Counted from the stretch's first letter, positions 12,340-59,437 are shown. The stretch is 64,000 bases of DNA from a virus (IMGVR_UViG_3300021387_001464:47679-111678); one strand, 5' to 3'. Translations and numbers: made by a program. The notes: generated from the letters alone by a model not told the origin.

Positions 12340-12438
12340 CAACGCAATCGCAATTTGTTCCCAGAGGTGTAAATCCGTTCAATCCGTGTAATCCGTGGTC
12401 AAAAATTCTCAAAAAACATCAAAAAAACAATAGGCGAT

Positions 12439-12825
12439 ATGAACAAATTCCAAAAGGGCGATATGGAAGAAATACAGGATGCTTGCAGCGAGGGCAAGGA
12501 ATTTTACTTAGACAGCCCTGATAGTGACCGTAGGGCGTTCTTCAAGTTTGGAGGAACGACTTATTTCATTACGCGGGATGGCAAGGTGCTCTCATCGCGA
12601 GGCGACGGGTATCGCGAGCACGAGATTGCGCAGTATAATGGCAAGGGTTATCGTCGTGTACGGCTACGTGGCAAGACATTCAAGGTTCACCGCCTGGTGG
12701 CCGAGGCATTCGTGCCCAACCCTGACAACTTGCCCTATGTGCTGCACATTGACGGGGACCGCGAGAATAACATCTGTAGAAACCTGGAGTGGTCCGCAAA
12801 GCAGAGCAACCACCATGGGAAGTGA
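12439..12825 (+). CDS. HNH endonuclease (NUMOD4-associated type)
   Basis: GYRRVRL...VHRLVAEAFVPNPDNLPYVLHIDGDRENN...NLEW. Confidence 0.85.
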   Translation: MNKFQKGDMEEIQDACSEGKEFYLDSPDSDRRAFFKFGGTTYFITRDGKVLSSRGDGYREHEIAQYNGKGYRRVRLRGKTFKVHRLVAEAFVPNPDNLPYVLHIDGDRENNICRNLEWSAKQSNHHGK

Positions 12826-12897
12826 AAAGTGAAAAGTGAAAAGTGAAAAATTTCTTGCTTAGGCAAGCGTACTAAAGAAACGATTAGCTACCGCCGT

Positions 12898-13052
12898 ATG
12901 AGTTATGTCGATAAACCCATCATCCTTGGCAGGTACAGCCCGAGTCAGAATGGCATAGTGGTAAGCCCACGCGGACCCGCACTCTGCCTTGCAGGGGGGG
13001 TAACGGACACGATACGGACAAGCCGAAAATACTGATAGAACATGAATTGTAA
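12898..13052 (+). CDS. mini-TRD module M1, phase OFF (G7 at 12994-13000; G8 restores frame)
   Basis: restored product MSYVDKPIILGRYSPSQNGIVVSPRGPALCLAGGGNGHDTDKPKILIEHEL. Confidence 0.7.
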
Positions 13053-13185
13053 AACAATGCTATTGAATCCACAGGGGGGGGTATGCCGCACCATCAAGTC
13101 ACAGTATTACAAAAGCAGCGTGGCGAATTTCCTGCTGCAGACCACCAGAGGAGCAACGGCAGTATTGATAGAATATGAACTATAA
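13042..13185 (+). CDS. mini-TRD module M2, ON (G8 at 13074-13081)
   Basis: MNCKTMLLNPQGGVCRTIKSQYYKSSVANFLLQTTRGATAVLIEYEL. Confidence 0.7.
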   Translation: MNCKTMLLNPQGGVCRTIKSQYYKSSVANFLLQTTRGATAVLIEYEL

Positions 13186-13400
13186 GCGCATACCGAAGCC
13201 AGCGAACCTGCGAGACCATACACCGAGTATGGCCGAAGCATTGCCCTATATGATAGAGGCGTGCGGTTTGAGGGGGGGGGTGTTTGTTCGACTATCGCCA
13301 CTTTGTGTACGACACCATCGACGGATGCTACCCGTTCCCAGTGACCACAAGGATTCATGCCAGTAATCAGATTTGGCTATGCAAAGAAATAGAACTTTAA
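13175..13400 (+). CDS. mini-TRD module M3, OFF (G9 at 13272-13280; G8 restores frame)
   Basis: restored C-terminus RGGCLFDYRHFVYDTIDGCYPFPVTTRIHASNQIWLCKEIEL. Confidence 0.6.
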
Positions 13401-13414
13401 AACAAGATAAAAGA

Positions 13415-14920
13415 ATGATTGCAAAAGTTTATCCAGATGGGCATCCTGACTTGCAAGGCAAGAAGGACCCGACGCACCCAGTGCGCTATTTCGACATCCG
13501 TAAACTCACTCCACGCAAGTGCTATTCACTGATGGGCGTGCCGCCGCAGCAGATCGACACGCTGATGAAAACCGAAAAGAAACCATATATGGCATGGGTG
13601 GGCGTAGATGCCGAACTGGCTGTGTTCGGACTGGAGCCGAGTGCCACGCGCCGCGAGGTCGATGAAGCATATCGCGAGGCTATCGAGAGTCTAAGAAGAC
13701 CCACCCCCGACCCCTCCCTGGGCGAGGGAGGGGAGTGTGAAGACCCCGACAGACCCACCCCCATGCACCTCCCTGCTGAGGGAGGGGAGTGTGAAGAGCC
13801 TGAAATGAGCGAAGAGGAGGTGGCCCTGATGCGTGAGAACTACGATATGAACTACCAGCGCATCATCGCTGCCAGCCAGGAGCAGCGTTACGGTGACGTG
13901 CAGATTATTGCCAACTCGTCGCATTACAAGCTGGCGGGTAACTCCATCGTCTGCGACGTGCTGATGTATATCTACGAGGAACTGATGTACCCGACGGGCC
14001 GCCGACTGCCGCAGGAGCAGACCGACCTGTTCGCCCAGCCGCAGTTCCGGCTGACCCGAAACTGGAAGAAAGAGCCGCTGAAGTTGGTAACACTTTGCAG
14101 CGGCTACGACTCGCAGGCAATCGCTATGGATATGCTGCAACAGCGCTATCCGGACTTCCGATGGGAACTGAAGGCATGGAGCGAGTTCGACCCCGAGAGC
14201 AGCCGGCCACTGGAAGAGCAGCCCGCCGTGGTGGCCCATAATCTGCTGTTCCCACAATACAAGGATTTGAACCGTGGCGACATGACCAAGGCCGACTGGA
14301 GCGACCTCGCCGATGCAGGTATCGACCTGCTGACATATAGTACTCCGTGTCAGTCCATCTCACAGGCTGGCAAGCGAGAGGGTATCAAGAAAGGTAGTGG
14401 CACTCGCAGCGCCGTGCTGTGGAGCACCGAGATGGCGGTAGAGCATCTGCGACCGAAGGTGCTATTGCAGGAGAATGTGCGGGCGCTTATCAACAGCGTG
14501 AACATGCCCGACTTCCGCGAGTGGTGCAGCCTGCTGGAGAGCTACGGCTACGTGAACTTCCTCGCGCCATCGTTCCCGACGGTCTGGGGCACCGACAAGC
14601 GCGACAAGAAGACCGTGCCGGGCATCCTGAACGCCAAGCATTATGGTGTGCCACAGAACCGCGAGCGGGTGTATATGGTCTCCATTCGTGCCGACCTGCT
14701 CGGTGGCACGCAGTATGAGTTTCCCCGTCCTTTCCCGCTCGACAAGTGCATTGCCGATGTGCTGGAGGATAATGTCGATGAGCGTTTCTTCCTGAAGCCC
14801 GACTCGGTAATCAAGTTCCTCACAGTGAATGAATCGACTGACAGTAACGATATACACTATACGGTAACGGACCACAAACTCTCCGATGAAGAAATCGCCA
14901 AGATTCGTAGTGGAAAGTAG
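13415..14920 (+). CDS. circularly permuted DNA (cytosine-5) methyltransferase lacking a TRD
   Basis: motif IX IRKLTPRKCYSLMG and motif X HYKLAGNSIV come first, then I (LCSGYDSQ), IV (STPCQ), VI (ENV) and VIII (PQNRERVY); protein ends about 80 aa after motif VIII. Confidence 0.9.
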   Translation: MIAKVYPDGHPDLQGKKDPTHPVRYFDIRKLTPRKCYSLMGVPPQQIDTLMKTEKKPYMAWVGVDAELAVFGLEPSATRREVDEAYREAIESLRRPTPDPSLGEGGECEDPDRPTPMHLPAEGGECEEPEMSEEEVALMRENYDMNYQRIIAASQEQRYGDVQIIANSSHYKLAGNSIVCDVLMYIYEELMYPTGRRLPQEQTDLFAQPQFRLTRNWKKEPLKLVTLCSGYDSQAIAMDMLQQRYPDFRWELKAWSEFDPESSRPLEEQPAVVAHNLLFPQYKDLNRGDMTKADWSDLADAGIDLLTYSTPCQSISQAGKREGIKKGSGTRSAVLWSTEMAVEHLRPKVLLQENVRALINSVNMPDFREWCSLLESYGYVNFLAPSFPTVWGTDKRDKKTVPGILNAKHYGVPQNRERVYMVSIRADLLGGTQYEFPRPFPLDKCIADVLEDNVDERFFLKPDSVIKFLTVNESTDSNDIHYTVTDHKLSDEEIAKIRSGK

Positions 14921-15106
14921 TGCTGTGCTGCGGGGCGTGCGGACAGAGCACGCCCGTGCAGTACGCCGTATCTACGGTGACAGGGGGGGTACTGCCACTT
15001 CTCGGACCGCAACTACCTGCCTGCTACCGATGGCTGCAGCAACACCATCACTGGCGTACAGAAGGACAACCTATTGATAGTTGAATATGAATATAAAGAG
15101 TGTTAA
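14910..15106 (+). CDS. mini-TRD module M4, OFF (G7 at 14983-14989; G8 restores frame)
   Basis: restored ...RTEHARAVRRIYGDRGGYCHFSDRNYLPATDGCSNTITGVQKDNLLIVEYEYKEC; start is GTG 14910 or ATG 14886. Confidence 0.7.
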
Positions 15107-15230
15107 GCCCTACGACGATTACAATTCTACCCCCCCCCGACGCGATGGTGTCATTGGCACCGTTACAAGGCAAATTGGAACATCAGCACCAAGGAACGGC
15201 TGGAAAATATTGATAGAGTATGAAATATAA
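15087..15230 (+). CDS. mini-TRD module M5, ON (C9 at 15130-15138)
   Basis: MNIKSVKPYDDYNSTPPRRDGVIGTVTRQIGTSAPRNGWKILIEYEI. Confidence 0.7.
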   Translation: MNIKSVKPYDDYNSTPPRRDGVIGTVTRQIGTSAPRNGWKILIEYEI

Positions 15231-15384
15231 CAGGATATTGCAAATAGGCAACCTTACTGAAGGTGCAGGCAGAAACAACCCGCAGCGCAGAAGGCTCTAC
15301 TCGCCCTATGGCATTGCACCAACGGTGTACGGCTATCAAGGCGGTGGCAATTTGCAACCCTTGGTATTGATAGAGTATGAGTAG
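15220..15384 (+). CDS. mini-TRD module M6 (no tract)
   Basis: MKYNRILQIGNLTEGAGRNNPQRRRLYSPYGIAPTVYGYQGGGNLQPLVLIEYE. Confidence 0.75.
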   Translation: MKYNRILQIGNLTEGAGRNNPQRRRLYSPYGIAPTVYGYQGGGNLQPLVLIEYE

Positions 15385-15577
15385 CGTTACCCCCATATTG
15401 CGGCAAGTCCCTGTTCGGCGAGTGCGGACGGAATGGGCAAAGGCCATCCGACGAGAGACGGGCACCAACCCGTTTCAAGCCAAACAACTGGAGGAGTTTG
15501 TGTCGGACTACATGCCTACCATCACCGCCAGTGCAAACATCGAGAACTACATAAAGGTAGAGTATGATATTGATTAA
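15377..15577 (+). CDS. mini-TRD module M7 (no long tract)
   Basis: RTEWAKAIRR...MPTITASANIENYIKVEYDID; resembles M4. Confidence 0.7.
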   Translation: MSSVTPILRQVPVRRVRTEWAKAIRRETGTNPFQAKQLEEFVSDYMPTITASANIENYIKVEYDID

Positions 15578-15746
15578 AGAAACGATGCCCAACGAAGACC
15601 GCTTCCCTGTCCGTATCTCAGCAAGTCGTGGCAGGGGGGGGCAAAGACCGTTCCATCAGGTCATTGAACTCGGATCGTCGCAAGCCACAAACACCATCAC
15701 ATCAGTACAAAAAGATAATCTGGTATGGATAGAGCGAGATATTTAG
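15564..15746 (+). CDS. mini-TRD module M8, ON (G8 at 15634-15641)
   Basis: ASRGRGG...QVIEL...TNTITSVQKDNLVWIERDI. Confidence 0.75.
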   Translation: MILIKETMPNEDRFPVRISASRGRGGQRPFHQVIELGSSQATNTITSVQKDNLVWIERDI

Positions 15747-15878
15747 TTGGCGTACATCCGTTCTCTCACGCTTTGGAGTGTGAGGGCAAAATATGGGGGG
15801 GGGCAAATCAGTCCTGCCCTGCGGAGTACGGATTATAAATGTCCTCATTGTGTATTGATTGAGTATGAAGGAGTTTAA
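15725..15878 (+). CDS. mini-TRD module M9, OFF (G9 at 15795-15803; G8 restores frame)
   Basis: restored ...GKIWGGQISPALRSTDYKCPHCVLIEYEGV. Confidence 0.7.
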
Positions 15879-16045
15879 GTTTATTGGATGGACACGGCTC
15901 GGCAGTGGAAAAGGTGACGTATCAAAGTATCATCTGCGCCACTACTGTAACGCCATAACCTCGTTTGCAGGGGGGGGGTATTGGCAAGGATTCGCAGACT
16001 GGAATGTATAACACCACACCGTATGTATTGATAGAATATGAGTAA
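15865..16045 (+). CDS. mini-TRD module M10, OFF (G9 at 15970-15978; G8 restores frame)
   Basis: restored ...HYCNAITSFAGGGIGKDSQTGMYNTTPYVLIEYE. Confidence 0.7.
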
Positions 16046-16233
16046 AGAAAAGAAAGTTCGCCGATGCGACAACATTGCAGGGAAGTGGATGCCCGATGGC
16101 TCTATCCGCTTCTACCAAATGAACGAGCGGAAAGGCGGTGTGCCCGAACTTGTCAACGGCTACGCTGGGGGGGGTCATGCCCTGTATCATAGCAGGCCAT
16201 GAGCATTATGTTATTGTAGATTATGACCTATGA
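16038..16233 (+). CDS. mini-TRD module M11, OFF (G8 at 16167-16174; G7 or G10 restores frame)
   Basis: restored ...PELVNGYAGGVMPCIIAGHEHYVIVDYDL. Confidence 0.65.
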
Positions 16234-16484
16234 GTAACGTCAAGCATTATCCAACCGACGGGCGACCGTTTCTCTCCACCGCTTTGAGGGGGGGGCAGTT
16301 CGTGCTGCAAGTTCGACAAGCCACGGAGCAGGGCTACATCGAGTGTGTCAGCGGTGGCGTGTTCGATGTGGCTTATCCTTCCAGCCAGCTGCGCCGTGCC
16401 CGCGTCAAGGACGACGGCCTCGTGGCATCAGCGCTCATGTCGGGTGAAACATCACAATGCGTATTCATAGAATATGACGAATAA
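16230..16484 (+). CDS. mini-TRD module M12, ON (G8 at 16288-16295)
   Basis: QVRQATEQGYIECVSGGVFDVAYPSSQLRRARV...CVFIEYDE, like the 'QATKKGY...SKTRRGRV' variable-region segment of phage C5-MTases. Confidence 0.75.
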   Translation: MSNVKHYPTDGRPFLSTALRGGQFVLQVRQATEQGYIECVSGGVFDVAYPSSQLRRARVKDDGLVASALMSGETSQCVFIEYDE

Positions 16485-16614
16485 AAAATATTACGGAGGA
16501 ATATACTGTTGCTCTTCGCAATATGTGAAGAAAAAGCCTCTATGGGGCGTAGCACGTTGCATTATGGCTGATAAGGCTGACTATCATTTATTAGTAGAGT
16601 ATGAAGGCTATTAA
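16474..16614 (+). CDS. mini-TRD module M13 (no long tract)
   Basis: MTNKKYYGGIYCCSSQYVKKKPLWGVARCIMADKADYHLLVEYEGY. Confidence 0.65.
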   Translation: MTNKKYYGGIYCCSSQYVKKKPLWGVARCIMADKADYHLLVEYEGY

Positions 16615-16895
16615 ACTATCGCGCACCACATCGGCTACGGCCAAGCATTTGAGGGGGGGGGGACTTCCTGCCGGTTCAAGGCTGCGATTCAGCGAGAGCA
16701 GTCGAAAGCTCGCTTTCAGACTGCCGAGCGCAAGCAGGCTCGACGGGTTACTTGTTACCTGTCAATACCACGACAGGCGGCTGCGCCTGTACGCTCAACA
16801 CCCGCTACGACGGTATGCAACTGCCAGAGGATATCCTCTCGCTCGCACACTATCCAAAGACAGTCGTGCTTATCGAATATCATCCTGACGGGTAA
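16601..16895 (+). CDS. mini-TRD module M14, OFF (G10 at 16653-16662; G9 restores frame)
   Basis: restored ...LPVNTTTGGCACTLNTRYDGMQLPEDILSLAHYPKTVVLIEYHPDG; contains a 67-bp repeat insert. Confidence 0.65.
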
Positions 16896-17004
16896 GGTTT
16901 CGTCCTCGCAAGATGGAGTGGTCGTATCGCCATACGGCATTGCACCCACCCATTCCGCAGGGCACGGTAACTGTCCAAAGATACTGATAGAGTATAATAT
17001 ATAA
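16879..17004 (+). CDS. mini-TRD module M15 (ATC where the other modules have ATG)
   Basis: (I)ILTGKVSSSQDGVVVSPYGIAPTHSAGHGNCPKILIEYNI; paralogue of M1 and M6. Confidence 0.6.
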   Translation: MILTGKVSSSQDGVVVSPYGIAPTHSAGHGNCPKILIEYNI

Positions 17005-17046
17005 CAAATTCAATTTATTTATTCACAAAACAAAAAAGTAACGATT

Positions 17047-17619
17047 ATGGCAAACTTTTCAGGCAACATCAATCTACTTGGCTTCAAGGGAGCCAAAGTG
17101 TTCACCAACCTCGACGCACAGCGACCGCAGATCGCCTACGTGTGCATCCCAGTAAACTACAACGACATCCAGCTGTCGCAGGACGGCAGGTACGCCAACG
17201 CCCGCGTCTTCATGGCCGAGACCAACGACAAGTTCCGGCAAGCCTGCATACAGCGCAAGCAGCAGTCGGGCGACAGCATGGAAGGCTACATGCCACCCTC
17301 GCACCAGATGGAAGTGTCGTTCTCGCCCGAGTTCCGCCAGCGAGCCCTCGAAGCCGCCCGCAAGCGACTCCTGAGCGAGCACCCCGAATGGACGGGCGCC
17401 GACCTCGAAGACCCCGAGCGCAACACCGACCTGCGCAACGCCATGTACGACGCCGTGCGCTGCCGACTGGGAAGCATGTACTGCCACCAGCGCCAGTCAG
17501 CCGCGCCCGCCGCAGCAGCCCCCGCCACCGCCACCGCCGCACAGGGCGCACAAGGCTGGACTCCGCAGGACGGCCAGCCGTTCCCAGCACAGGAGGAGAA
17601 CGATGACCTGCCATTTTGA
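17047..17619 (+). CDS. putative single-stranded DNA-binding protein
   Basis: Ala/Gln-rich linker and acidic C-terminal DDLPF tip. Confidence 0.55.
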   Translation: MANFSGNINLLGFKGAKVFTNLDAQRPQIAYVCIPVNYNDIQLSQDGRYANARVFMAETNDKFRQACIQRKQQSGDSMEGYMPPSHQMEVSFSPEFRQRALEAARKRLLSEHPEWTGADLEDPERNTDLRNAMYDAVRCRLGSMYCHQRQSAAPAAAAPATATAAQGAQGWTPQDGQPFPAQEENDDLPF

Positions 17620-17692
17620 GGGCTGAGGGCTGAGGGCTGATGGCTGATGTAGGGGTCGCCTCTTGCGAAGCGCCCCGAAACAAGAAAAGGAG

Positions 17693-17727
17693 TGTCCGCG
17701 TAGTTGCGGGCACTCTTTTTAATTTTG
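17693..17727 (+). promoter_or_regulatory. phage-type promoter TGTCCG-N21-TAATTTTG
   Basis: exact 21-nt spacer; heads the tail operon. Confidence 0.75.
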
Positions 17728-17750
17728 TACCCAACAAGACACGAATAGAT

Positions 17751-18785
17751 ATGTTTGGACAGAAATCGACACGACAAATCGACCTGCATCTGCCTACGGG
17801 CTGGAACCGCTGCACCACGGAGGAGCTGGAAGCCATCGCCGCCGCCATCATTCAGGAGCAGCAGCGAGTAGATAGATACCACCCCTTCGACTGGAGTAGG
17901 GTGAAGCTGAACGTCGCCCTTTCCATTAACGATATATCGACATATCGACATAACGATATATCGAAGGACGACGAAAGCACTTGGCTCGTAAAGCGCCCGC
18001 AGGACAAGGAGCCGTGGCCTATCACCATGGGGCAGCTGGTGGCACTGACCGAGCGGCTGGCGTGGATAGACGACGAGAAGGCGGATAAGACGATCTTCCA
18101 GTTCCCGTATAATTCATTGAACATTGAACATGGAACATTGAACATTAAAGTTCAAGGTCCCCCGCCACTGCTCGACGGCTACACCTGGAACGAGTACCGC
18201 CTGCTGACCGACTGGATGCAGGCGTATATGCGGCATAGCAATGCCATAGTGAAAATGAAGAATGAAGAATTAAGAATGAAGAATCAGGAGGCGGCGGCGC
18301 AGGCACAGCGGGAGTTCCTGGCTATCCTGTTCAAACCCTGCGAAAAATCGCAGGGGACAGCAGCTGTGAATGATGGCGGCGGCAGCAAAAAAATGTTCAA
18401 TGTTCAACGTTCAATGTTCAATGTTCAATGTTCAATGTTCAATGCTCAATCTTCAATGTTCAATGTTCAATGTTCAATGTTCAATGATTTCGACCCCGTA
18501 AAATGGCAGGTCATCCTCTTCTGGTGGTCGTCGCTCATGTCGATGCTTGCGAAGAAGTTCCCCAAGGTATTCAAGCAGCAGCCCGTGGGCAAGGGCAAAC
18601 GCCGCCCGCAGCAGCAGGACACCCCGTGGGACTTTTACAACCGCGTGACCGCCACGATACAGAAATACATCGGCGGCCTCTCCGAGCAGGACGTGAACAA
18701 CGCTACCTATGGCACCATCCTGCAACAGCTGGAGATGATGGCCGACGAGGCAGCGGAAATGGAAAAACTGAAAATGAAAAAGTAA
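17751..18785 (+). CDS. hypothetical virion-morphogenesis-region protein with four in-frame heptamer-repeat insertions
   Basis: ATG 17751 lies downstream of the promoter; repeat-derived peptides NDISTYRH, NIEHGTLNI, MKNEELRMKN and (MFNVQCS)n. Confidence 0.7.
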   Translation: MFGQKSTRQIDLHLPTGWNRCTTEELEAIAAAIIQEQQRVDRYHPFDWSRVKLNVALSINDISTYRHNDISKDDESTWLVKRPQDKEPWPITMGQLVALTERLAWIDDEKADKTIFQFPYNSLNIEHGTLNIKVQGPPPLLDGYTWNEYRLLTDWMQAYMRHSNAIVKMKNEELRMKNQEAAAQAQREFLAILFKPCEKSQGTAAVNDGGGSKKMFNVQRSMFNVQCSMFNAQSSMFNVQCSMFNDFDPVKWQVILFWWSSLMSMLAKKFPKVFKQQPVGKGKRRPQQQDTPWDFYNRVTATIQKYIGGLSEQDVNNATYGTILQQLEMMADEAAEMEKLKMKK

Positions 18786-33229: not shown

Positions 33230-36200
33230 ATGGCAAGAACAAAGAAAATAGTCATTGAAGGTCAGAACCTTCTGACGAATATCACCCAGCCTTGGGGTGG
33301 AGTGAATAACGGCGAGAGTGTAATAACAGTCTATGGCACGCAAGTGCCTCCAGGTTATGAGTGGGGTGTGAACCGAGGCGAGATAGAGCGGTTTATGAAG
33401 GAGCAATATGGAACGAAGTTTGGTGACTTCCGTACCACTGATCCTGATGCGAACAACTTCATCCATCTGCTCTGCTTTGCTACCAAGGCAGACGCGGCGG
33501 CGTGGGACGAAGACCCGGAGGGCGCTGCAGAGTTGATAGTGAAAGACCTGACTATCCCCATCTCTACGGCGAGCGTGGATAGCTATGTCGCCACACTATC
33601 GACCAATCGCAGTACCAGCATCCAGTATCTGATGAAGGACGGCGACGACTTCTATATTCCACTGCGTCTGAACGCCACGCATATCATTGCCGCTACCTCG
33701 ACGCAAGAGCCGATGTCCGGCAATGGTACGCTGATAGTGGAACGTAGCAACAACGGCACGGACTGGACACAGGTGCGCAGCAGTACGATGGCGGCCAGCA
33801 GTGAGCAGACAGGCTATCCGATGACTATCAATATGAAGGGATTGCTTGTTGACGGCAACCTGAACTATATCCGTCTGCGTGCTACCTTCCCCTATACCGA
33901 CACAGAGGGGCAGGCAAAGGTGATGGGTACAACGCCTATCGTATTGCAAGTAAATAGTGTGTCGCTGACCGTCGAAATGACTACACCCTGGCATGAGCCG
34001 CAGGTTGATCCGTCGGCGCTATCACTGGCGTACAATATCCGTGGAAACATTAACAGAGTGCTGCATCTGAAGGTAACGGGCTCAGCGGGTACTTACGAGA
34101 CGTCACAGACCGTCACTGCCGCACAGACGCAGGCTACCTTCTCGCTGGTAGAAATGTCAGCCTACGGACTGCTGACGCACGGCATTAAGACCTGTGAGGC
34201 ATGGCTGACGGCAGGTGACGAGACGTCTGGAGAGCTGGAGAGCGAGCATCTGATTAACCGAATCATGGTGGTGCGGACGTCGGCAGGTGAAGAGGTGTAT
34301 ATGCAGCCGAAGTTGCTCATCTCTGAAATGAAGAGCGAGGTGGAAAACTTCGTGCAGACCCGCTTGCTGGCCTACGCCATCTACTCGCCGACCAAGAACA
34401 GCGAGGGTGACATCGTGAACAACGGTCCTGCCATCCCTACTACGTTCATTCTGACTAACTCTGCTAACAGTATTATATCGTCTCAGCAGAACCGCTACGC
34501 CTCGGTGCTCGTCACGCCACAGCCAGGACAGCGCTACTATCTCGACCTGACGGTGGAGATTGAGCAGGACGGCGACACATTAGCATCGTTCCTGCACGCT
34601 ACCCGCGAGGTGAACGGCGTGGCGCGTGACTTCTTGTTGGAGTCTATCGGCAGCGGCAGTATCTACCTGCGTGTCGATAACACGGGCGGCTTCCAGCCTA
34701 CAGCAGGCTCCACGTTCCTGCTAAACCCCAAGCAACGCAACAACGAGGAAGCTAACCCGATGACCATTCTCAATGCCAAGGCCAACAATGCAGTCATAGA
34801 CAGTGAGTGGCAGAACTTCCGCTTAGGTAACGAGGACGGCTATATCAAGGATGAGAACGGCGAGTCGTGCCTGCGTATTCCTGCCGGCCGCAAGCTCTTC
34901 ATTCGTTACAATCCGCTCGCACTACTCTACCGTTCACCAAACGCTTCGCTGACGATGGAGTTCGACGTGGCTATCCGCAACATCACCAACGAAGATGATC
35001 CTATCCTGAAACTCGCCGAGCAGGTGAGTGGCGTGTGGCGCGGTCTGCGCCTGTTGCCGATGACGGGTTTCTTCACCACTGAGTCATGGAATGCCGACGA
35101 AGAGAGTGATTTCCGTTGGAGCGAGGATGAGCGTACACATATTGCTGTCAATATTGTCAACGCTGTCTATCCCAATGCGCACGGCGATGCGCTGGTGACA
35201 GCCGAGAAGGAGGCACAGGGTCGCGGCTCTATGTCGCTGGTTCGCATCTTTATAAATGGCATCATCAAGCGCGAACTGGTATATACCCCGTCGGCTACAG
35301 AGTTCTGCACGGGCTCAATGAGTAATGGCGGATTCGAGATTGGTCAGAATGGTGCCGACATAGACATCTATGGTATGCGATTCTTCGAGGGTGTAGCCCT
35401 CGACTCAGAAAATGTCAAGCAAGACTGGCTTTCGACAATACCAGACAGCGACAAAAAAAGAAGAATTAAGGCCGAAAATGATATTATCGACCCGAACACT
35501 GGCCTGATAGGTCTCGACTATATTGCCGGCAATGGTAATATAGTAGGTCTTCGTCGTAACTGGCTCATCTGGCATGGAAATGAGCCGTATCACGACAATG
35601 TTCACAAGAACGAAACAGGCTGGATTGAGTGGGCTCGGTATGACAATGACGGCAACTATCTGCCAGAATATTCAGGTACATTTTGCAAAGAAACAAAGAG
35701 TGTCCCACAAAAGCCACAGGGTACAACAGCCAAGACTTACTACTACTACAATGATCAGTGGGATTGCGGCAAGGCAACTGGCATCATCACCATTGACATC
35801 ACCATGTTGCACAGCAGTATCACGGCTGAGTGGGATGCTAACTACGAATGGCTGGACGGTGACAAACAGCCAACGGGCGAGGTTGGTGCATGGATGATGA
35901 AGGGTGGTTACTTAGGTAAGAATTTCCCGCTGCCTACGGAGTCAGCCCTTCCGTATCACGGTACACCGACCACCGTCACCGTACCCGACGGCTGGATCGA
36001 CGGCAATGGCAAGTATCGTGGTGTTGGCGTACAGATAGCCGAGGGAATTCCGATGGCACAGAAAACTGTCAACAAGATTAACTATGCCTCCAGCATGCAG
36101 TCGCACCTGATTGGCATCAACTGGCTCTACAATGAACTGCATACACGTATCTGCGGTAAGAACACCATGCAGCTGGCAGTCGATGGCGCAATGGTGGCCA

Positions 36201-39200
36201 AGCGCACCGAGCCGTTCCTGTTCTTCACACAGGCAGAAGGCGCACAGCGGGCAGTATTCCGTGGTCCTTCCGCATGGGGAGCAGGTAAGATGGACAAACC
36301 ATCGTGGGGCTATGTGAAGTCAGCACATTCCGACTTCTGCATGATTGAGGGTGCTGATAACGACAAGCAGCTGACGGATATGCGTGTGCCCTGGGATGAT
36401 GAAGCGCACGGTGGCACCCCTGCCAAGGTTTACTATGATCCCGACGAGGAAGCCTTCTATTACCGCATAGCAGGTGGTGATGCTGAGAAGTGTATCGACT
36501 TCGACGCTGGCAAGACGGACGATGACGGCTATCCGAAGTCTAATATCGTAGGCTATATCAAGGCAGCATGGAACTTCCTGTATCTGCATGCTCCCCGCAT
36601 ACGTCACTACGAGGGGACGCTGGCAGAGTTCATGACAGACGCGGAGTGGGCACAGCGGCCTATCACCGCCGAAACCACAGAGGAAGAGCGTGAGCGCATC
36701 GAACTGGCCCGCAGCCGCGTGAACACCGCCAACAAGTATTGGTGTCACTCCGAAGGTGGCAGTGCTGCAGGTGACTATCTGCTGAAGCGTTATGACTTCG
36801 CGGATGGTGAGTGGGTGGATGCTGGACTTTGGAATGGTACGCAGTACGCCCAGATAGACCTCCGCACCTACAGCATGACGGCAGCGGCATGGAACGCGCT
36901 GACGGAGGCCGAGCGCAACCAGAGTGCCATCGTCAACAAGGCTTTCGTGGATGCTATCGTCGCCGACTGCCGAGCAAACATCGGCAACTACTTCAAGGTG
37001 TCGTCGCTGAAGTTCCACTACTGCTTCCAGAACCACTTTATCGCCGGAACGGATAACTGTTCAAAAAATACCTACTATGTACTCGACCCGTCAACGCATC
37101 TGTTCGAGATGCACCAGGACGATGTTGACACGACGCTGGCAACGGACAACAGCGGCTTGCAGTCGAAGCCGTACTACATTGACCGTATGCACCCGTATGG
37201 CGGTGCTAATGCCAAGCGTATCGCCATGACAGGTGATGTGGATAACGCCAACATCTTGTACGAGGGCTATTACAACGTCCTTTTCGACCTCTGTGAGCTG
37301 ATGTATGAGCCGACAGGAGAGCTGCAGGCCATGATGCACACCATCTTATCGGAGATGGCTTCGCTGACGGGCGGACTTGACAACGAGGAAACAACGGCCA
37401 TGAGTGGCGTATGGAAGGCATTGAACCGTTATCTGTTCAACATTCAGCGCTACTTCCCTGCCACCGTGTATAATGAGGCAGCACGCATCCGTTACGAGTT
37501 CCCCGAACTGATAGGTTTCCTGTCGGACATCCGTGCGGTACGTCCCATCAAGCAGTCGTTGGGCGACCAGTTGCAGGCTGAGCTTCAGTTTATGAAGCGC
37601 CGCCTTGTCTATATGGCGTCGTATGCTGCCTTTGGCGAGTTCACTCCTACCGGATTACGCAGCGGACTGACAGGACTGAGCGAGGCTACCGACTCGTTCG
37701 GTATGCAGAAGTTTGCCCTGCCTGGTTCTTCGTCTCCCTCTCCCTACGTCTTTAACCTCGTTCCGCACCAGTGGATATACCCGACGGGCGGACGTGAGAC
37801 GAACAACCTCATCGACCCTCATGAGCGTGTGGCTCCCGGCGACACCTTTGTGCTTGACATCAATCCAGGACAGGCTTCTGACCTCGGTGTGAATGTGTTC
37901 GGACTGAACTACTACCGCGAGCTGGGCAACGTAGGTGACATGGTAGCCAACAACGGACAGGCTAACTTTACACTGAACGGTCGCCGACTGGTGAAGTTCG
38001 AGGCTGTTCCAACAGTTTTCTATACTGATGCACAGCTGCCGGCCTTCCGTGTGAACAACATCATTATCGGCTCTGCTACACGCCTGAAGGAGTTCAACGT
38101 GAGAGGTGCGGTGATTGGTACTGGTACGCTGAACCTGTCATCGCTGACCCTTGCTGAGACAATAGACACGAGGAATACCAAGATTTCGCAAATCCGCCTG
38201 CCGGAAACATCGACACTAACAACGCTTCGTCTGCCTGCCACGCTGACGCAACTGTCGCTGACGGGACAGTCGGGACTGAGCACGCTCGACGTGCAGGGTG
38301 TCGATGTGATGACGCAGCTGACGATGACGGGCGTTCCCCTGCTGATGGGTGTGCGTTCGATGGTGCTCTGTGACGCCCTGCGCTCTGCCGACACGCGCCG
38401 CGAGAATACCACTACACTTATCCGACTGGCAGACATCGACTGGACGGAAGTGCAGGCTAACCTGATGAAATGGTTGATAGGTGTTGGTGATAACGGCACA
38501 TGTGACATCACGGGCAGCATCGTCATGTTCAACGGTGTCGGGGCTGCTACACTGTCATACGAAGAGGTGGCGAAGTTAATCACAAGATATGGCGACATAC
38601 GCTCGACCGACAATTCGCTGTACGTCAATTATCCGACTACCAATATTACGACCGACAGCATATCTATTGAAGGAAAGAAATATGTTGTTAATGCTGACAT
38701 TGAGACTGACAGTGAGGGCAACAGGTGGTGGAAACAACTTGGACTTTTGGTAAGCAGCGGTAACAACGTCGCTATCGTCACTACTCCTGACGGTCGCATC
38801 ATCCCCGATGTGCGATGGGAGTTTGTAGAACCCGATGCCGATACCTTTGCCGAGTTCCCTGATGAGTTCTCTTCATGGATTGTCATCAATAGCCTTGCAG
38901 CAAGACAGGTGCGTACCGTCCGTGTGACGCTGCATACCACTACGGGTGTCGATGTGACATGCGACAAGAAGGTAGGCTTTTGGAATCGCGTTCCAGAAGT
39001 GGGTGACTTTGCGTGGACCGACGGAACATTCGATAACGAAGATGACCAGTCCAAGAAGATGGCTGGCGTTGTAGTGATGCGTGAGGTGCTGGAACGTGAT
39101 GAAGAGGATAATATCATCGCCGCTAAGTTGTGGGTAGAAGGTACTCACAATATCGGTCTTCCTGCGAGCTATGTAGGTCGCGGCAGCGCTAACGTTCCGA

Positions 39201-40231
39201 CATACAACGACCAGGGATTCACGACATCGTGGGGTATCTATCCGAGCGCTTCGCTTGGATTCAGCGACGCCACAGGCGAAAATGCCGATCCGCTGATAGC
39301 GCATATCCGCAGTGAACTGGGTGTCAGCGACCCGTTCGAGACCCCGCTGCCGAACAAATCGACCGACTTTTATATATCCCCATCCACATACCAGGATGAG
39401 ACGAACGATCAGCCTGTTAGCGGTGCTATGGAAACAAGTACCACCTACGCACAGGCTGGTGACGGAACGGGCTATAAGCAGAGAACACAGAGTGAGGCCG
39501 CCATGGACTTTGCGACGGAGTATGAGAATGCGACGCTGCTTGCTTATGCCAACCGCATCTTAAAGGCCGTCTATACCTATTTCCCAACCATCCACAGTCA
39601 GATAGAGGCGCTTGGCATGAGGGTAGGTATTGACATTGATGCCGAGGACATTCCGCTGACTCGTCAGGCTGCTGCAGACATTATGATGCTGATCATTGAA
39701 GCTGCCGACGCTGCGGCAGGTGGCAATCTGACTGGCCTCGCACGTTATCGTGAGCTGATGTTCATTCCCGTCCGTGTATGCTCGCTGTGGAGTCCCGCCG
39801 AGGTAGCGGCTAACGCTATCACAGAGGAGGAACTTGATGAGCAGTACCGTCGCGGAAAGTGGATGCTGCCAAGTAACGGTCTGCTGGCACGTATCTTCAA
39901 CTTCCTGTGGAATAGTAGCTGCACTACGGATCCTGATACCGGAGCTAAAACCCGTACCAACGGAGCGCAGGCGACTATCAATAATAGTAACGAGCGGTCT
40001 GGTGAATTTGTCGCACACGAAGCGCAGCTGCCATTATTCTCTAATGTGTTATACAGAAGCAACAGTAGGCGAAACATCAATCTGAGTGCCAGCAGTAACC
40101 ATTGGAGTGTTACGGAGTACTACCGCAACCTCGCGAGGTACGTGTACTTCATCAATGGCCTCGTGAGCTACTACGGCAAGTACTACAGTAACGTTGTTCG
40201 TCCTGTCGCAGCATTCATATTTAGGGCGTAG
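33230..40231 (+). CDS. large tail/adhesin protein, DGR target with C-terminal variable (CLec-like) domain
   Basis: 2333 aa; LRR-like stretch; C-terminus WSVTE...VVRPVAAF is encoded by the VR. Confidence 0.85.
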   Translation: MARTKKIVIEGQNLLTNITQPWGGVNNGESVITVYGTQVPPGYEWGVNRGEIERFMKEQYGTKFGDFRTTDPDANNFIHLLCFATKADAAAWDEDPEGAAELIVKDLTIPISTASVDSYVATLSTNRSTSIQYLMKDGDDFYIPLRLNATHIIAATSTQEPMSGNGTLIVERSNNGTDWTQVRSSTMAASSEQTGYPMTINMKGLLVDGNLNYIRLRATFPYTDTEGQAKVMGTTPIVLQVNSVSLTVEMTTPWHEPQVDPSALSLAYNIRGNINRVLHLKVTGSAGTYETSQTVTAAQTQATFSLVEMSAYGLLTHGIKTCEAWLTAGDETSGELESEHLINRIMVVRTSAGEEVYMQPKLLISEMKSEVENFVQTRLLAYAIYSPTKNSEGDIVNNGPAIPTTFILTNSANSIISSQQNRYASVLVTPQPGQRYYLDLTVEIEQDGDTLASFLHATREVNGVARDFLLESIGSGSIYLRVDNTGGFQPTAGSTFLLNPKQRNNEEANPMTILNAKANNAVIDSEWQNFRLGNEDGYIKDENGESCLRIPAGRKLFIRYNPLALLYRSPNASLTMEFDVAIRNITNEDDPILKLAEQVSGVWRGLRLLPMTGFFTTESWNADEESDFRWSEDERTHIAVNIVNAVYPNAHGDALVTAEKEAQGRGSMSLVRIFINGIIKRELVYTPSATEFCTGSMSNGGFEIGQNGADIDIYGMRFFEGVALDSENVKQDWLSTIPDSDKKRRIKAENDIIDPNTGLIGLDYIAGNGNIVGLRRNWLIWHGNEPYHDNVHKNETGWIEWARYDNDGNYLPEYSGTFCKETKSVPQKPQGTTAKTYYYYNDQWDCGKATGIITIDITMLHSSITAEWDANYEWLDGDKQPTGEVGAWMMKGGYLGKNFPLPTESALPYHGTPTTVTVPDGWIDGNGKYRGVGVQIAEGIPMAQKTVNKINYASSMQSHLIGINWLYNELHTRICGKNTMQLAVDGAMVAKRTEPFLFFTQAEGAQRAVFRGPSAWGAGKMDKPSWGYVKSAHSDFCMIEGADNDKQLTDMRVPWDDEAHGGTPAKVYYDPDEEAFYYRIAGGDAEKCIDFDAGKTDDDGYPKSNIVGYIKAAWNFLYLHAPRIRHYEGTLAEFMTDAEWAQRPITAETTEEERERIELARSRVNTANKYWCHSEGGSAAGDYLLKRYDFADGEWVDAGLWNGTQYAQIDLRTYSMTAAAWNALTEAERNQSAIVNKAFVDAIVADCRANIGNYFKVSSLKFHYCFQNHFIAGTDNCSKNTYYVLDPSTHLFEMHQDDVDTTLATDNSGLQSKPYYIDRMHPYGGANAKRIAMTGDVDNANILYEGYYNVLFDLCELMYEPTGELQAMMHTILSEMASLTGGLDNEETTAMSGVWKALNRYLFNIQRYFPATVYNEAARIRYEFPELIGFLSDIRAVRPIKQSLGDQLQAELQFMKRRLVYMASYAAFGEFTPTGLRSGLTGLSEATDSFGMQKFALPGSSSPSPYVFNLVPHQWIYPTGGRETNNLIDPHERVAPGDTFVLDINPGQASDLGVNVFGLNYYRELGNVGDMVANNGQANFTLNGRRLVKFEAVPTVFYTDAQLPAFRVNNIIIGSATRLKEFNVRGAVIGTGTLNLSSLTLAETIDTRNTKISQIRLPETSTLTTLRLPATLTQLSLTGQSGLSTLDVQGVDVMTQLTMTGVPLLMGVRSMVLCDALRSADTRRENTTTLIRLADIDWTEVQANLMKWLIGVGDNGTCDITGSIVMFNGVGAATLSYEEVAKLITRYGDIRSTDNSLYVNYPTTNITTDSISIEGKKYVVNADIETDSEGNRWWKQLGLLVSSGNNVAIVTTPDGRIIPDVRWEFVEPDADTFAEFPDEFSSWIVINSLAARQVRTVRVTLHTTTGVDVTCDKKVGFWNRVPEVGDFAWTDGTFDNEDDQSKKMAGVVVMREVLERDEEDNIIAAKLWVEGTHNIGLPASYVGRGSANVPTYNDQGFTTSWGIYPSASLGFSDATGENADPLIAHIRSELGVSDPFETPLPNKSTDFYISPSTYQDETNDQPVSGAMETSTTYAQAGDGTGYKQRTQSEAAMDFATEYENATLLAYANRILKAVYTYFPTIHSQIEALGMRVGIDIDAEDIPLTRQAAADIMMLIIEAADAAAGGNLTGLARYRELMFIPVRVCSLWSPAEVAANAITEEELDEQYRRGKWMLPSNGLLARIFNFLWNSSCTTDPDTGAKTRTNGAQATINNSNERSGEFVAHEAQLPLFSNVLYRSNSRRNINLSASSNHWSVTEYYRNLARYVYFINGLVSYYGKYYSNVVRPVAAFIFRA
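40092..40216 (+). repeat. DGR variable repeat (VR)
   Basis: 125-bp ungapped match to 40978-41102 with 15 mismatches, all at TR adenines. Confidence 0.97.
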
Positions 40232-40251
40232 TCCATATTCACTGCTTTTAC

Positions 40252-40277
40252 GGGTAGCGGCCTTGAAGCCGCTACCC
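40252..40277 (+). promoter_or_regulatory. DGR target-recognition hairpin downstream of VR/IMH
   Basis: perfect 10-bp stem GGGTAGCGGC-CTTGAA-GCCGCTACCC, 20 nt after the target stop codon. Confidence 0.75.
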
Positions 40278-40303
40278 TCCGAAGCGAAACAAATAAGAAA
40301 TCA

Positions 40304-40432
40304 ATGAAAGAATACTGCACCGAGGTAGAAGACGTACAGCAGACGGTCAGCGAAACGTACATCATTGGCCAAATGAGATTAACAATAACAGAATATAACG
40401 GAAAACTCACAGCACAATGGGAGAGAATGTAA
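40304..40432 (+). CDS. small hypothetical protein in the DGR cassette
   Basis: 42 aa MKEYCTEVED..., overlaps the start of the Avd-like gene. Confidence 0.4.
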   Translation: MKEYCTEVEDVQQTVSETYIIGQMRLTITEYNGKLTAQWERM

Positions 40433-40890
40433 CAGAGAAGCCCACCGCCGGCGTACATATTCCTGAAGAGGTGGTGCGTCAGAGTGAAGAAAAGAAACAG
40501 CAGCACCGCACGATACGGCAGACGCAGGTGTACCGTGACGTGGCGAACCTGAAATATCTAATCGTCCGTCACATGAGTAATGCTCCACGGAAGTACGCCA
40601 AGTATTTCGACGAGATGCTTGTTACGGTTAGCAACGCCAAGCAGAGCCTTGCGCTCGGACTGATAGGGCGCAACGTAGAGCAGCAGTACGAGAACATGAG
40701 CTATGCACAGGTGATGGTAGAGGATATTCAGGATGACGCCATCATCCTGCACCAGCTGGGGTTGGTAGATAAAAAAGAGAAGAAAAGTATAAGGAGCTTG
40801 GCACAAAAGATAGCCGCGCAGATAGTCCGGCTGCGCGATTATTACAAAAGCCAGGGGATAGACATGAACGGTAAAACGTGTGAACCATGA
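40417..40890 (+). CDS. avd: DGR accessory variability determinant (Avd-like four-helix bundle)
   Basis: 157-aa helical, basic protein between VR and TR/RT. Confidence 0.65.
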   Translation: MGENVTEKPTAGVHIPEEVVRQSEEKKQQHRTIRQTQVYRDVANLKYLIVRHMSNAPRKYAKYFDEMLVTVSNAKQSLALGLIGRNVEQQYENMSYAQVMVEDIQDDAIILHQLGLVDKKEKKSIRSLAQKIAAQIVRLRDYYKSQGIDMNGKTCEP

Positions 40891-42368
40891 GCTATCGAGC
40901 GCTACATAATCGGCTGAATGGGCGTCTTACTGCGGGAGGAAACTCCTTCAGTTACGAAGATGCAAAGACGCAAAAAGGCAGTAACCATTGGAGTGTTACG
41001 GAGAACAACCGCAACAACGCGAGGAACGTGAACTTCAACAATGGCAACGTGAACAACAACAACAAGTACAACAGTAACGTTGTTCGTCCTGTCGCAGCAT
41101 TCGGTGATGTTGTGTCAACTCCTTTTCTTCTCTTTCTTCTCTCTGTCTGGAAGGCATACCACGACTGCTTGCGAAATAAGATGTCATCGACGCAGGCAGT
41201 GGAATACATGCAGATAGCTGCCTTCGACATACCCTGCCTGGCCTGGGAGCTATGGACAGGCACCTACCAGCCAGGCATATCCACTTGTTTTCTTGTCCGC
41301 TATCCCAAGTGGCGCGAAGTTTTTGCCGCCTGCTTCCGCGACCGTATCGTACATCACTGGATTTGCCTGCGCCTGGAGCCCTTGTTTGAGCTTCGCTTTC
41401 GTGAGCAAGGCAACGTAAGTTTCAACTGCCGCAAGGGGTTCGGTACCGACAGGGCTGTTGAGTACGTGTCAGAGGCCATGCGCCGCATTAGCGACAACTA
41501 TCATAAGCCCGCGTGGGTATTCCGTGGTGACATCGTAGGTTTCTTTATGGCCATCAACAAGGAGCTGTTATGGTATCTGCTGGAGCGCTTCATGCGCCGC
41601 TGGCAGTTCCGCGAGCAACATTTCGGATGGTGTAAGTACGGTTTGGCAGGACAACCGAAAATGTACTGGGACATTCTCTTTAATGTGACGCGCATCATAG
41701 TGATGCACCACCCCGAACAGAACTGCGTATTGAACTCACCCGTACACTTGTGGAAGAACCTCGCGCCAAACAAGAGCCTGTTCACATCGTCAACGGGCGA
41801 GCCCATCGGAAACCTGACCACACAGTTATTCGCCAATTTCCTGATGTCATTCTTTGTGGCATACGTGCAGTTTGTGTTCCGCCGCAAACGGTTCGACATG
41901 GCACAGTTTGTGGATGATTTCGTGTTGGTATGCGACGATCTACGCTTCCTTGTTGACAGCATTCCGCTGCTCGAGACGTTCCTACGTGACAAACTGCTGC
42001 TGACACTCCACGAGAACAAGCGCTATCTGCAGCCCGTTAGTCACGGCGTGCTGTTTGTCGGCACAATGATTAAGCCGTCAAGACAGTATCTCAGTAACCG
42101 CACTATATCAAGAATGACGGAGAAGTGCAACGGTTTCCGCGAGATACTGAACGGCATGACTACCGATGCCTTGCCGGACCTGACAACACTGGAACATATC
42201 GAGCAGGTCGTCAATAGTTACCTCGGCTTTACTCGACGAAGACAGACCTACGACTTCAGGACGAGCACCATCGACAGTATGGGTGACGCCTTCTGGTGTT
42301 ACTTTGTCGTGCGTGGACATTACGAGAGCATCCGACTGAGACGTCAGTACAGAATGATACATGTTTAA
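40887..42368 (+). CDS. DGR reverse transcriptase (start uncertain; reading frame is open through the TR)
   Basis: REVFAACFRDRIVHH, CRKGFGT, DIVGFFM, PIGNLTTQLFANF, FVDDF, GVLFVG. Confidence 0.93.
   Translation: MSYRALHNRLNGRLTAGGNSFSYEDAKTQKGSNHWSVTENNRNNARNVNFNNGNVNNNNKYNSNVVRPVAAFGDVVSTPFLLFLLSVWKAYHDCLRNKMSSTQAVEYMQIAAFDIPCLAWELWTGTYQPGISTCFLVRYPKWREVFAACFRDRIVHHWICLRLEPLFELRFREQGNVSFNCRKGFGTDRAVEYVSEAMRRISDNYHKPAWVFRGDIVGFFMAINKELLWYLLERFMRRWQFREQHFGWCKYGLAGQPKMYWDILFNVTRIIVMHHPEQNCVLNSPVHLWKNLAPNKSLFTSSTGEPIGNLTTQLFANFLMSFFVAYVQFVFRRKRFDMAQFVDDFVLVCDDLRFLVDSIPLLETFLRDKLLLTLHENKRYLQPVSHGVLFVGTMIKPSRQYLSNRTISRMTEKCNGFREILNGMTTDALPDLTTLEHIEQVVNSYLGFTRRRQTYDFRTSTIDSMGDAFWCYFVVRGHYESIRLRRQYRMIHV
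40978..41102 (+). ncRNA. DGR template repeat (TR)
   Basis: AAC-rich invariant copy of the VR. Confidence 0.97.
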
Positions 42369-58696: not shown

Positions 58697-58773
58697 ATCG
58701 CCTTATTCGTTCAATTCGTGAAATTCTTTCAGTCGCTACGCTTTGTGAAAGCGCTAAAGCGATTACGTGGTCG

Positions 58774-59437
58774 TTAAAAAAGTTCCAGTTGCACGGCCTG
58801 CTGTGCCGTGGGGTGGTTTATCCAGTCGAGCGTGGTCTGTCCGATCCAGCCCTTGCGCCACACCCACCAGGCGTAGCTGACTGCCGAGCCGCCTCCGGCT
58901 ATCATGCCGTCGAAGTCGGCGTTCTTGGCACATAGCACGCGCTCCGAACATTGCAGCACCAGCGCAGGCGGCGTGACACCGAAGATGCGCTGATAGCGCT
59001 CCTTGCCCTCGGCAAACGTGGTCTTCAAGAACAGGCACAGCAGTCCGTCCGTTGGCAGCAGTCGCAGGGCGTGCAGCACGTACTCCGTGGCGTACTTGTA
59101 GGGCGGGTTGGTGACGATGGCCGTGCAGCCCTCGGGCATCTGCTGCTGCTCGAAGAAGTTTACCCCCCCCCATTCCGTAGCCACGGTCTATGAGGTCGGT
59201 GCTTACCACGTGGTAGCCGCGCTGCCGTAACCGCTCGCTCAGACAGCCGCTGCCGCACGACGGTTCCCACACACCCTGCGGCAACTCCACATAGGGGTAG
59301 TCGCACAGCAGGTCGATGGCCACGGGGTCGGTAGCGTAGAAGTCATCCGTCTCGCGCTCCTTCTCCGTGTGGTTCGATGCCCCCAGCGTCTTGAAGATGC
59401 TGTTGCCGTTGCCGTTCCAGTCTTTATTGCTGCTCAT
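58774..59437 (-). CDS. N6-adenine (amino) DNA methyltransferase, frameshifted at a G9 tract (phase OFF; G8 restores frame)
   Basis: 5' frame: DFYATDP, WEPSCGSG, STDLIDRGYG; 3' frame: VNFF...IVTNPPY...YAWWVW; junction at C9, 59163-59171. Confidence 0.85.

Follow-up and report, generated by a model that had tools for sequence, protein, structure and literature searches.

The 64,000-nucleotide window analyzed here comprises bases 47679-111678 of the 111,678-bp virus record IMGVR_UViG_3300021387_001464 in IMG/VR, which CheckV rates as complete. On the plus strand at positions 12898-17004 (window coordinates throughout, unless noted), it encodes a circularly permuted C5 cytosine DNA methyltransferase (C5-MTase) core without a target-recognition domain (TRD), together with 15 small open reading frames (ORFs), which we call modules. 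At least seven of the modules are TRD homologs, a conclusion that is well supported, and 11 contain a homopolymer tract, for which hypermutability is equally well supported. The locus is a new architectural variant of the multispecific phage C5-methyltransferases. On balance we think it probable that the modules are free TRD subunits serving one core in trans, each with its own phase-variable switch.

Catalytic core and TRD-like modules

Both the conserved motifs and the methyltransferase fold place the core among C5 cytosine DNA methyltransferases. Motifs IX (RKLTPRKC, residue ~29) and X (GNSI, 175) precede motifs I (LCSG, 227), IV (PCQ, 311), VI (ENV, 353) and VIII (QNRER, 414), which is the order of naturally permuted enzymes of the M.BssHII type, and the termini likewise lie in the variable region. 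The ten conserved motifs of the enzyme class are all located in the core and none in the modules. The AlphaFold2 model of the core (mean predicted local distance difference test score, pLDDT, 78.5) matches 4dkj (M.MpeI), M.HhaI and M.HaeIII with E values down to 5.6e-12. The N-terminus lies about 20 residues ahead of motif IX, and the C-terminus, about 85 residues past motif VIII, ends at a ...VLEDNVDERFFLKP... segment, the counterpart of which lies ahead of the TRDs in canonical enzymes, the methylase of Staphylococcus phage SpP among them. Since the two ends sit at TRD boundaries, the core is without a variable region, as a first-pass annotation of the window had claimed. The chain starts at MIAK after the stop of module m3 and retains no TRD. 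Its ratio of nonsynonymous to synonymous substitution rates (dN/dS) is 0.16-0.21.

The core chain includes, between motifs IX and X, an insert of about 110 amino acids that is specific to the family (13553-13900; residues ~47-165). It comprises a conserved folded segment (...KKPYMAWVGVD..LAVFGLEPSAT..EV.EAY...), a variable stretch that is acidic and disordered, and a long helix. In the predicted model the insert is confidently folded at residues ~53-95 and 133-163 and partly disordered at 96-129, and the acidic stretch contains a 53-nt tandem duplication (13697-13803). A likeness of the insert to a J-domain was insignificant (E 1.8). The insert may be a docking platform for the modules.

The modules are numbered m1-m15 along the plus strand, m1-m3 upstream and m4-m15 downstream of the core (Table 1), and their predicted products are mini-proteins of about 45-100 amino acids. 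All 15 are found on the plus strand where the first-pass annotation had placed them; as continuous ORFs they hold up only in part, seven being split over two frames at poly-G and m15 having no ATG. The shared terminal strand, (I/V/L)x(I/V)EY(E/D), which had been attributed to all modules, is present in 13 of the 15, with m3 and m8 ending otherwise. The start codon of m4 overlaps the 3' end of the core by 35 nt.

Table 1. Features of the methyltransferase array and the gene directly 5' of it; "one ORF at" gives the tract length that restores a single reading frame.
Feature	Position	Strand	Tract and frame	Characteristics
HNH endonuclease gene	12439..12825	+		directly 5' of the array, context only
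m1	12898..13052	+	G7 12994-13000; out of frame, one ORF at G8	SPSQNGIVVSP...KILIEHEL type
m2	13042..13185	+	G8 13074-13081; in frame	CRTIKSQYYK type
m3	13175..13400	+	G9 13272-13280; out of frame, one ORF at G8	ends LCKEIEL
C5-MTase core, circularly permuted, no TRD	13415..14920	+		PF00145 E 6e-36; motif order IX-X-I-IV-VI-VIII
m4	14886..15106	+	G7 14983-14989; out of frame, one ORF at G8	RTEHARAVRR...SNTITGVQKDN type
m5	15087..15230	+	C9 15130-15138; in frame	
m6	15220..15384	+	no tract, intact	RRRLYSPYGIAPT type
m7	15377..15577	+	no tract, intact	VRRVRTEWAKAIRR...TITASANIEN type; dN/dS 0.06 against locus L004
m8	15564..15746	+	G8 15634-15641; in frame	NTITSVQKDN type; ends VWIERDI
m9	15725..15878	+	G9 15795-15803; out of frame from the orthologous ATG at 15725, one ORF at G8	SPALRSTDYKCPHC type
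m10	15865..16045	+	G9 15970-15978; out of frame, one ORF at G8	FIGWTR...CNAITS...GIGKDS...MYNTTPY type
m11	16038..16233	+	G8 16167-16174; out of frame, one ORF at G7 or G10	ends VIVDYDL
m12	16230..16484	+	G8 16288-16295; in frame	QATEQGY...RRARV type
m13	16474..16614	+	no tract, intact	
m14	16601..16895	+	G10 16653-16662; out of frame, one ORF at G9	CACTLNTRYDG...AHYPKTVVLIEY type
m15	16615..17004, TRD part ~16897-17004	+	frame open back to the m14 tract	SSSQDGVVVSPYGIAPT...KILIEYNI

The clearest homology to TRDs of canonical C5-MTases is that of m12. By tblastn, m12 aligns to the interval between motifs VIII and IX of the SpP enzyme (residues 246-300, with motif VIII at 157 and motif IX at 353) and to residues 278-356 of the Streptococcus phage Javan93 enzyme, directly before motif IX. 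A profile built from five m12 orthologs (A1) was used in an exhaustive HMMER search of 1.84 billion representative proteins, and 612 proteins were found at E<=1e-3 and 142 at E<=1e-10. Among the best 150 matches, 61 are longer than 250 amino acids, and all ten long ones sampled are PF00145 enzymes; in those whose Pfam match breaks off after motif VIII, the m12 match falls in the variable region (in protein P0153, for example, Pfam extends to residue 224 and m12 covers 358-409). Another 55 of these 150 are no longer than 130 amino acids, many of them ending in VFIEY-like strands; free-standing copies are therefore common.

Six more modules (m2, m4, m6, m8, m9 and m15) match the variable regions of the same long enzymes at neighboring positions, as in the enzyme P0243, where m4 matches residues 170-197, m6 198-226 and m12 248-296. 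Since the modules match the positions of tandem TRDs, the array corresponds to the TRD set of a multispecific methylase with one gene per TRD, and the resemblance to C5-MTase variable regions proposed in the first-pass annotation is thereby confirmed. Profile searches of PDB with the m12 family and the TLNTRYD family (A2) gave chance matches only (E>0.1), a word-indexed protein search with m12 returned no "longer" proteins, and tblastn of an m14-type module against phages found no match. One match in an Evtepia phage, taken up as a candidate free module, was rejected because it is an ordinary multi-TRD C5-MTase annotated as hypothetical.

Homopolymer tracts and junctions

Eleven modules contain a tract, ten of poly-G (7-10 nt) and one of C9, on which the first-pass annotation was silent. 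These 11 are among only 14 G/C runs of at least 7 nt in the whole 111.7-kb genome, and all 11 lie within 3.7 kb. The modules m1, m3, m4, m9, m10, m11 and m14 are split over two frames exactly at the tract and are not intact in the assembly; in every one of the seven, a 1-nt change of tract length yields an uninterrupted ORF that runs from the ATG at the junction to the stop at LIEYE. With m15 probably out of frame as well, about half of the module library is off in this genome. An alternative genetic code for the split modules was considered and dropped, because the modules change frame and are not mended by reassignment of stop codons.

The same pattern is seen in a survey of 159 unique modules from 45 loci. 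Tract-free modules are intact in 34 cases and unclear in five. Among tract-bearing modules, 25 of the 36 in frame have G8, and those out of frame mostly have G7 (45, needing +1) or G8-G9 (17, needing -1). Five pairs of modules are identical save for tract length and are in opposite states; four of these pairs are between L030 and L035, with changes in both directions. In contigs of other sequencing runs, at a word depth of about 50, the tract at 13074 (m2) is G7 in place of G8, both in other runs of the same sample and in runs of another sample, and that at 14983 (m4), G7 in the window, is G8 in runs X5 and X3, as predicted for a restored m4. Since otherwise identical modules differ in their tracts, tract length changes more quickly than point substitutions build up, as is characteristic of a contingency locus. 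In distant relatives (L006-L013) the modules are present and long tracts are few, consistent with an origin of the tracts within one clade.

The three other G/C runs are at genome positions 29405 (G8) and 37661 (G7) and at window position 59163 (C9, in the minus-strand ORF 58763-59437). Two of these three are within ORFs of 224-234 amino acids and could be further contingency loci. Some relatives also have a poly-C tract in the core itself, in the GVPPPQ codons just behind motif IX, which the window core does not have: C10 in L002 (5127) and C8 in L001 (193) and L003 (5095). The core is out of frame at this tract in L002 and in database proteins that start past it (18 of 120 core homologs). 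This poly-C tract may be a master switch, or it may split the enzyme into a TRD-IX piece and an X-I-VIII piece.

Successive modules are joined by a motif, TTGATAGARTATGA, which encodes the L-I-E-Y-E/D strand. With up to two mismatches it occurs nine times against 0.56 expected, always on the plus strand and inside the array only. Together with the ATG of the next module, a junction holds two stops in the second frame (TGA and TAG) and one in the third (TGA); the module's own stop comes 0-5 codons past the motif. Whatever its frame, a ribosome would therefore be released only a few bases from the following start, an arrangement that, as read from the sequence, would fit termination-reinitiation coupling. 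With stops in three frames and a new ATG, translation of a module should therefore be independent of the frame state of its neighbor. Scans of the array locus for promoters and terminators gave no interpretable signal, and neither inverted repeats nor an invertase-type shufflon was found within 12400-17400.

The pair of m14 and m15 departs from this layout, having ATC in place of ATG at the junction and no start codon of m15's own. The frame of m15 is open back to the m14 tract in the window (16601-17004), in L004 (7376-7688) and in L001 (2193-2509), over 65-95 codons; in L002 an m14-type module is followed by a normal junction and the alternative frame is closed. In all three open loci the tract length that puts m15 on is that for m14 minus one, and in the window m15 would be read from the m14 leader at a tract of G8 or G11. 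A single leader with its tract may thus select which of two TRDs is read; another possibility is that translation of m15 begins at a codon other than ATG.

Relatives, mechanism and competing explanations

Cores accompanied by arrays of LIEYE-ended mini-ORFs were found in about 45 loci, 13 of them viral and about 30 metagenomic, with cores 53-97% identical. Module sets and their order differ between loci, which is the variable arrangement that had been anticipated for related phages. Between orthologous modules dN/dS is 0.06-0.26, on a par with the core and also counting pairs of which one copy is out of frame, and it is well supported that the modules are separate genes under purifying selection. 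The core family is abundant in rumen and gut metagenomes, with hundreds of core clusters. A blastn search with the whole array against deposited phages found no match, and tblastn with the core against them aligned only the I-VIII half, at no more than 57% coverage, so that the permuted core is in no deposited phage searched.

Several relatives carry a module within the core chain. In L007-L010 and L013 a m10-like module (...FVGWTR...CNTITS...) is fused in frame to the core N-terminus, its terminal strand being followed by a linker of about ten residues and then by MIAKIYPDGH. Among the best 120 clusters of core homologs, 46 have a fused module of another type (...TILAGISSRNHYFxCEE...), 56 start at MIAK, unfused like the window core, and 18 start past the poly-C tract. 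The fused forms share the "Type H" permuted topology described for M.BssHII (PMC5944983). These natural fusions support a functional tie between modules and core.

Contigs from other runs show that whole cassettes are lost or replaced exactly at junctions. In run X5 the m11 cassette is absent (16036 joined to 16229) and a diverged cassette of equal length stands in place of m3; in runs X2 and X5 a different stretch of 114 letters takes the place of m13; and in run X3 position 15230 is joined to 15882.

We propose that the C-terminus of the permuted core (past motif VIII) and its N-terminus (before motif IX) would flank the site where a TRD belongs, and that one mini-protein at a time would dock there. 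The module's C-terminal strand, (V/I)L(I/V)EY(E/D), would adjoin the N-terminal strands of the core, and the docked module would complete the small domain and set the sequence to be methylated. The junction would thus have three uses: to encode the docking strand, to stop ribosomes in three frames and to supply the next ATG. Polymerase slippage at the tracts would change their lengths frequently and bring single modules into or out of frame, while m6, m7 and m13, which have no tract, would always be on. The motifs that are methylated would consequently vary among progeny. In this way the phage may balance shielding from the Type II restriction enzymes of its host against the risk of attack by methylation-dependent (Type IV) ones. 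From this layout we infer docking in trans, methylation with several specificities and a role against restriction. The strongest indirect argument is genetic: a conserved core without a TRD is difficult to account for other than by a recognition domain supplied in trans. We regard as evenly balanced the case for the fuller scheme, a plug-in system whose core accepts any of about 15 free TRDs in trans, 11 of them phase-variable, with m14 and m15 as alternative frames of one tract, giving about two thousand methylome states, and with cassettes swapped with relatives at the conserved junction.

Complex prediction of the core (A3) with m12 gave a score of 0.45 against 0.00 for the best of three controls and was graded as weak support; 58 of 80 solved complexes passed the mark used, as did 2 of 110 mismatched pairs, and at scores of 0.60 or below it was reached by seven of those 80 solved complexes and by both passing mismatches. 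The runs agree in at least 19% of contacts, with a partner pLDDT of at least 30. AlphaFold2 gave a pLDDT of 31-38 for the N-terminal module of P0011, a relative with a natural fusion, which is too low to judge module packing. Of the earlier idea of free, interchangeable TRDs that dock on the core, TRD homology and the TRD-less core are supported and natural fusions tie the modules to the core; for docking itself the complex prediction is weak.

Several observations weigh against the proposal of switchable TRD subunits acting in trans. No direct sequence match to canonical TRDs was found for m1, m3, m5, m7, m10, m11, m13 and m14. Of these, m1, m7 and m14 are assigned as TRDs by BLAST clustering with matched modules and m10 by the natural fusion; for m3, m5, m11 and m13 the layout and the shared terminal strand are the only basis. 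The fold of m12 in the complex runs is uncertain (pLDDT 31-40), and the IX-X insert could let the core carry out recognition by itself. Since tracts were compared in assembled contigs, the variation seen is between strains and samples, which is no direct view of switching within a population. In fragment complementation of M.SssI, splits in the distal variable region near motif IX are poorly tolerated (PMC3404938).

One alternative is that the mini-proteins are made and lend no specificity to the core, which would use its IX-X insert or a relaxed specificity while the peptides act as decoys, regulators or competitors of host enzymes. The conserved, confidently folded insert (residues ~53-95 and 133-163) and the weakly supported docking speak for it, and we still hold it to be unlikely, given that the modules are homologous to TRDs, which work only as part of the methyltransferase small domain, that the core termini lie exactly at TRD boundaries, that in-frame fusions place a module at the TRD position and that modules flank this core family in every locus examined. 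It is similarly doubtful that the free modules are a silent reservoir, storage copies recombined through the junction repeats as in pilS/pilE with only a fused TRD in use. The exact loss and replacement of cassettes at junctions (the 16036-16229 and 15230-15882 joins and the replaced m3 and m13), the shuffled module order between loci and the single fused module of many relatives are what such a reservoir would leave. However, neither the window nor 56 of the 120 clusters has a fused module, yet the core is conserved (dN/dS as above); most modules have their own ATG in a termination-reinitiation context, and frame-switching tracts are sensible only in translated genes. Moreover, the fused module is always of one family within a clade, which argues against cassettes rotating through an expression site.

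The tracts themselves might not be heritable switches. Homopolymers are prone to sequencing error, and long runs are sites of transcriptional slippage, so assembly errors, or constant transcriptional or ribosomal slippage that expresses all modules somewhat, would account for the broken frames, the more so as contigs and not raw reads were compared. This is improbable in view of the same +/-1 pattern in dozens of independent assemblies across studies, with G7 the commonest state, of the alternative lengths in other-run contigs at 50x word depth, and of the near absence of frameshifts in tract-free modules (34 intact, 5 unclear); slippage at the level of expression would come on top of DNA-level variation and is no substitute for it. 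Least probable of all, and very improbable in itself, is that the array is the decayed remains, or pseudogene fragments, of one long multi-TRD methyltransferase gene, an outcome that the first-pass annotation had named as one that would overturn its view. Canonical relatives do have the same TRD types in tandem in one chain, and seven modules are frameshifted in this assembly. Decay is nevertheless contradicted by module dN/dS values of 0.06-0.26, far below 1, by lesions that occur only at tracts and are each mended by 1 nt, by junctions with the next ATG and three-frame stops that recur, with the layout kept across about 45 diverged loci, and by the conservation of unfused cores.

Known systems and genome setting

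The nearest known systems are the multispecific phage C5-MTases (M.SPRI, M.Phi3TI, M.H2I, M.Rho11sI and the enzymes of the Javan93 type and the Evtepia phage), which are likewise phage-borne and combine one core with several TRDs of about 40-70 amino acids, each presumably for one specificity. At least seven of the window modules are homologous to their tandem TRDs. In those enzymes the TRDs lie in one chain between motifs VIII and IX, whereas in the window each TRD has its own gene, the core is permuted and TRD-less, and most modules have a homopolymer switch; tandem TRDs in a single polypeptide are not found here, the modules being in different frames with three-frame stops and mostly a new ATG. 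The permuted enzymes M.BssHII, M.Alw26I, M2.Eco31I, M.Esp3I and M2.BsaI have the same order of IX-X before I-VIII, with termini in the variable region (PMC5944983). They keep the TRD in the chain and have one specificity, while the window core has its TRDs in separate genes; the fused relatives (TRD-IX-X-I...VIII) match the M.BssHII-type topology.

Assembly from chains split in or near the variable region is known for M.AquI and M.EcoHK31I and for artificial fragments of M.SssI, M.MpeI and M.HhaI (PMC3404938, PMC5944983). Since splits of M.SssI near motif IX are poorly tolerated, precedent for assembly in trans is mixed. M.AquI and M.EcoHK31I consist of two fixed partners, both with catalytic motifs, whereas the window has 15 alternative small partners without a catalytic motif, cut off from both motifs VIII and IX. 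Consistent with this, a Pfam scan of eight modules (m2, m5-m8, m12, m13 and m15) gave no match at E<=1. Specificity on a separate subunit, as proposed for the modules, is found in Type I HsdS/HsdM.

Stochastic switching of methylation by simple-sequence repeats in coding regions is the property of phasevarions (Type III mod, Type I hsdS and Type IIG), including a Campylobacter Type IIG example (PMC4889913), and the tracts in the array resemble these repeats. Phasevarions are N6-adenine enzymes of cellular restriction-modification systems with one or a few switches, in contrast to a phage C5 enzyme with up to 11 independent switches. As in other contingency loci, a coding-region homopolymer sets the frame here, and its length varies among identical or nearly identical modules. 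Phages also have such loci, in which hypermutable homopolymers serve as bet-hedging switches, as is proposed for the array tracts: poly-G tracts are present in receptor-binding protein genes of Fletchervirus (10.1101/2025.10.21.683753), and homopolymer loci of T2/T4 are cited there as reference 47. Those loci concern receptor binding and other single genes, in contrast to an array of methylation-specificity modules. No account of C5 TRDs encoded as genes of their own, or of an array of this kind, came up in a full-text literature search.

If the fuller scheme is true, the system would be the first among C5-MTases in which specificity subunits can dissociate, and no denser array of contingency loci would be known from a virus. 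Should the mini-proteins work in trans, C5-MTase specificity would reside on a dissociable peptide of about 50 amino acids, which is undescribed for this enzyme class and is a property that engineers of targeted methylation have sought by splitting enzymes. Phages would then run a combinatorial, stochastic methylome and could hedge escape from Type II enzymes against methyl-dependent restriction. Because gene callers miss or mis-join most modules, current annotation hides the family. Variation in tracts and cassettes is a ready marker of phage micro-evolution in metagenomes.

The stretch is present in sequencing runs of animal gut metagenomes, including sheep and bovine gut. A core of 71% identity comes from a contig of 104 kb that was grouped in binning with a metagenome-assembled genome of an uncultured rumen Prevotellaceae, and this placement of a relative's contig is a weak pointer to Prevotellaceae as the host of the phage. 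The window also encodes a tape-measure protein, a sliding-clamp-like protein, an HNH endonuclease and a reverse transcriptase. Just 5' of m1 there is a tandem AAGTGAAAAGTGAA repeat at 12820-12847, and contigs from many unrelated organisms pile up at 12800-12943 with a word depth of about 50,000; this is therefore a low-complexity stretch and no part of the array.

A diversity-generating retroelement is present at 33230-42368. Its 125-nt repeat at 40092-40216 forms the 3' end of a 2333-residue ORF (33230-40231) and pairs with a copy at 40978-41102 that adjoins the reverse transcriptase gene (40887-42368), which matches phrog_1423 (E 8e-55). All 15 mismatches of the pair are at A positions of the second copy, the signature of a template repeat. 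With this retroelement beside the methyltransferase array, the phage therefore has two separate diversification systems. In addition, the peptide MFNVQCS is repeated about eight times (18300-18500) in a 381-residue ORF at 17640-18785.

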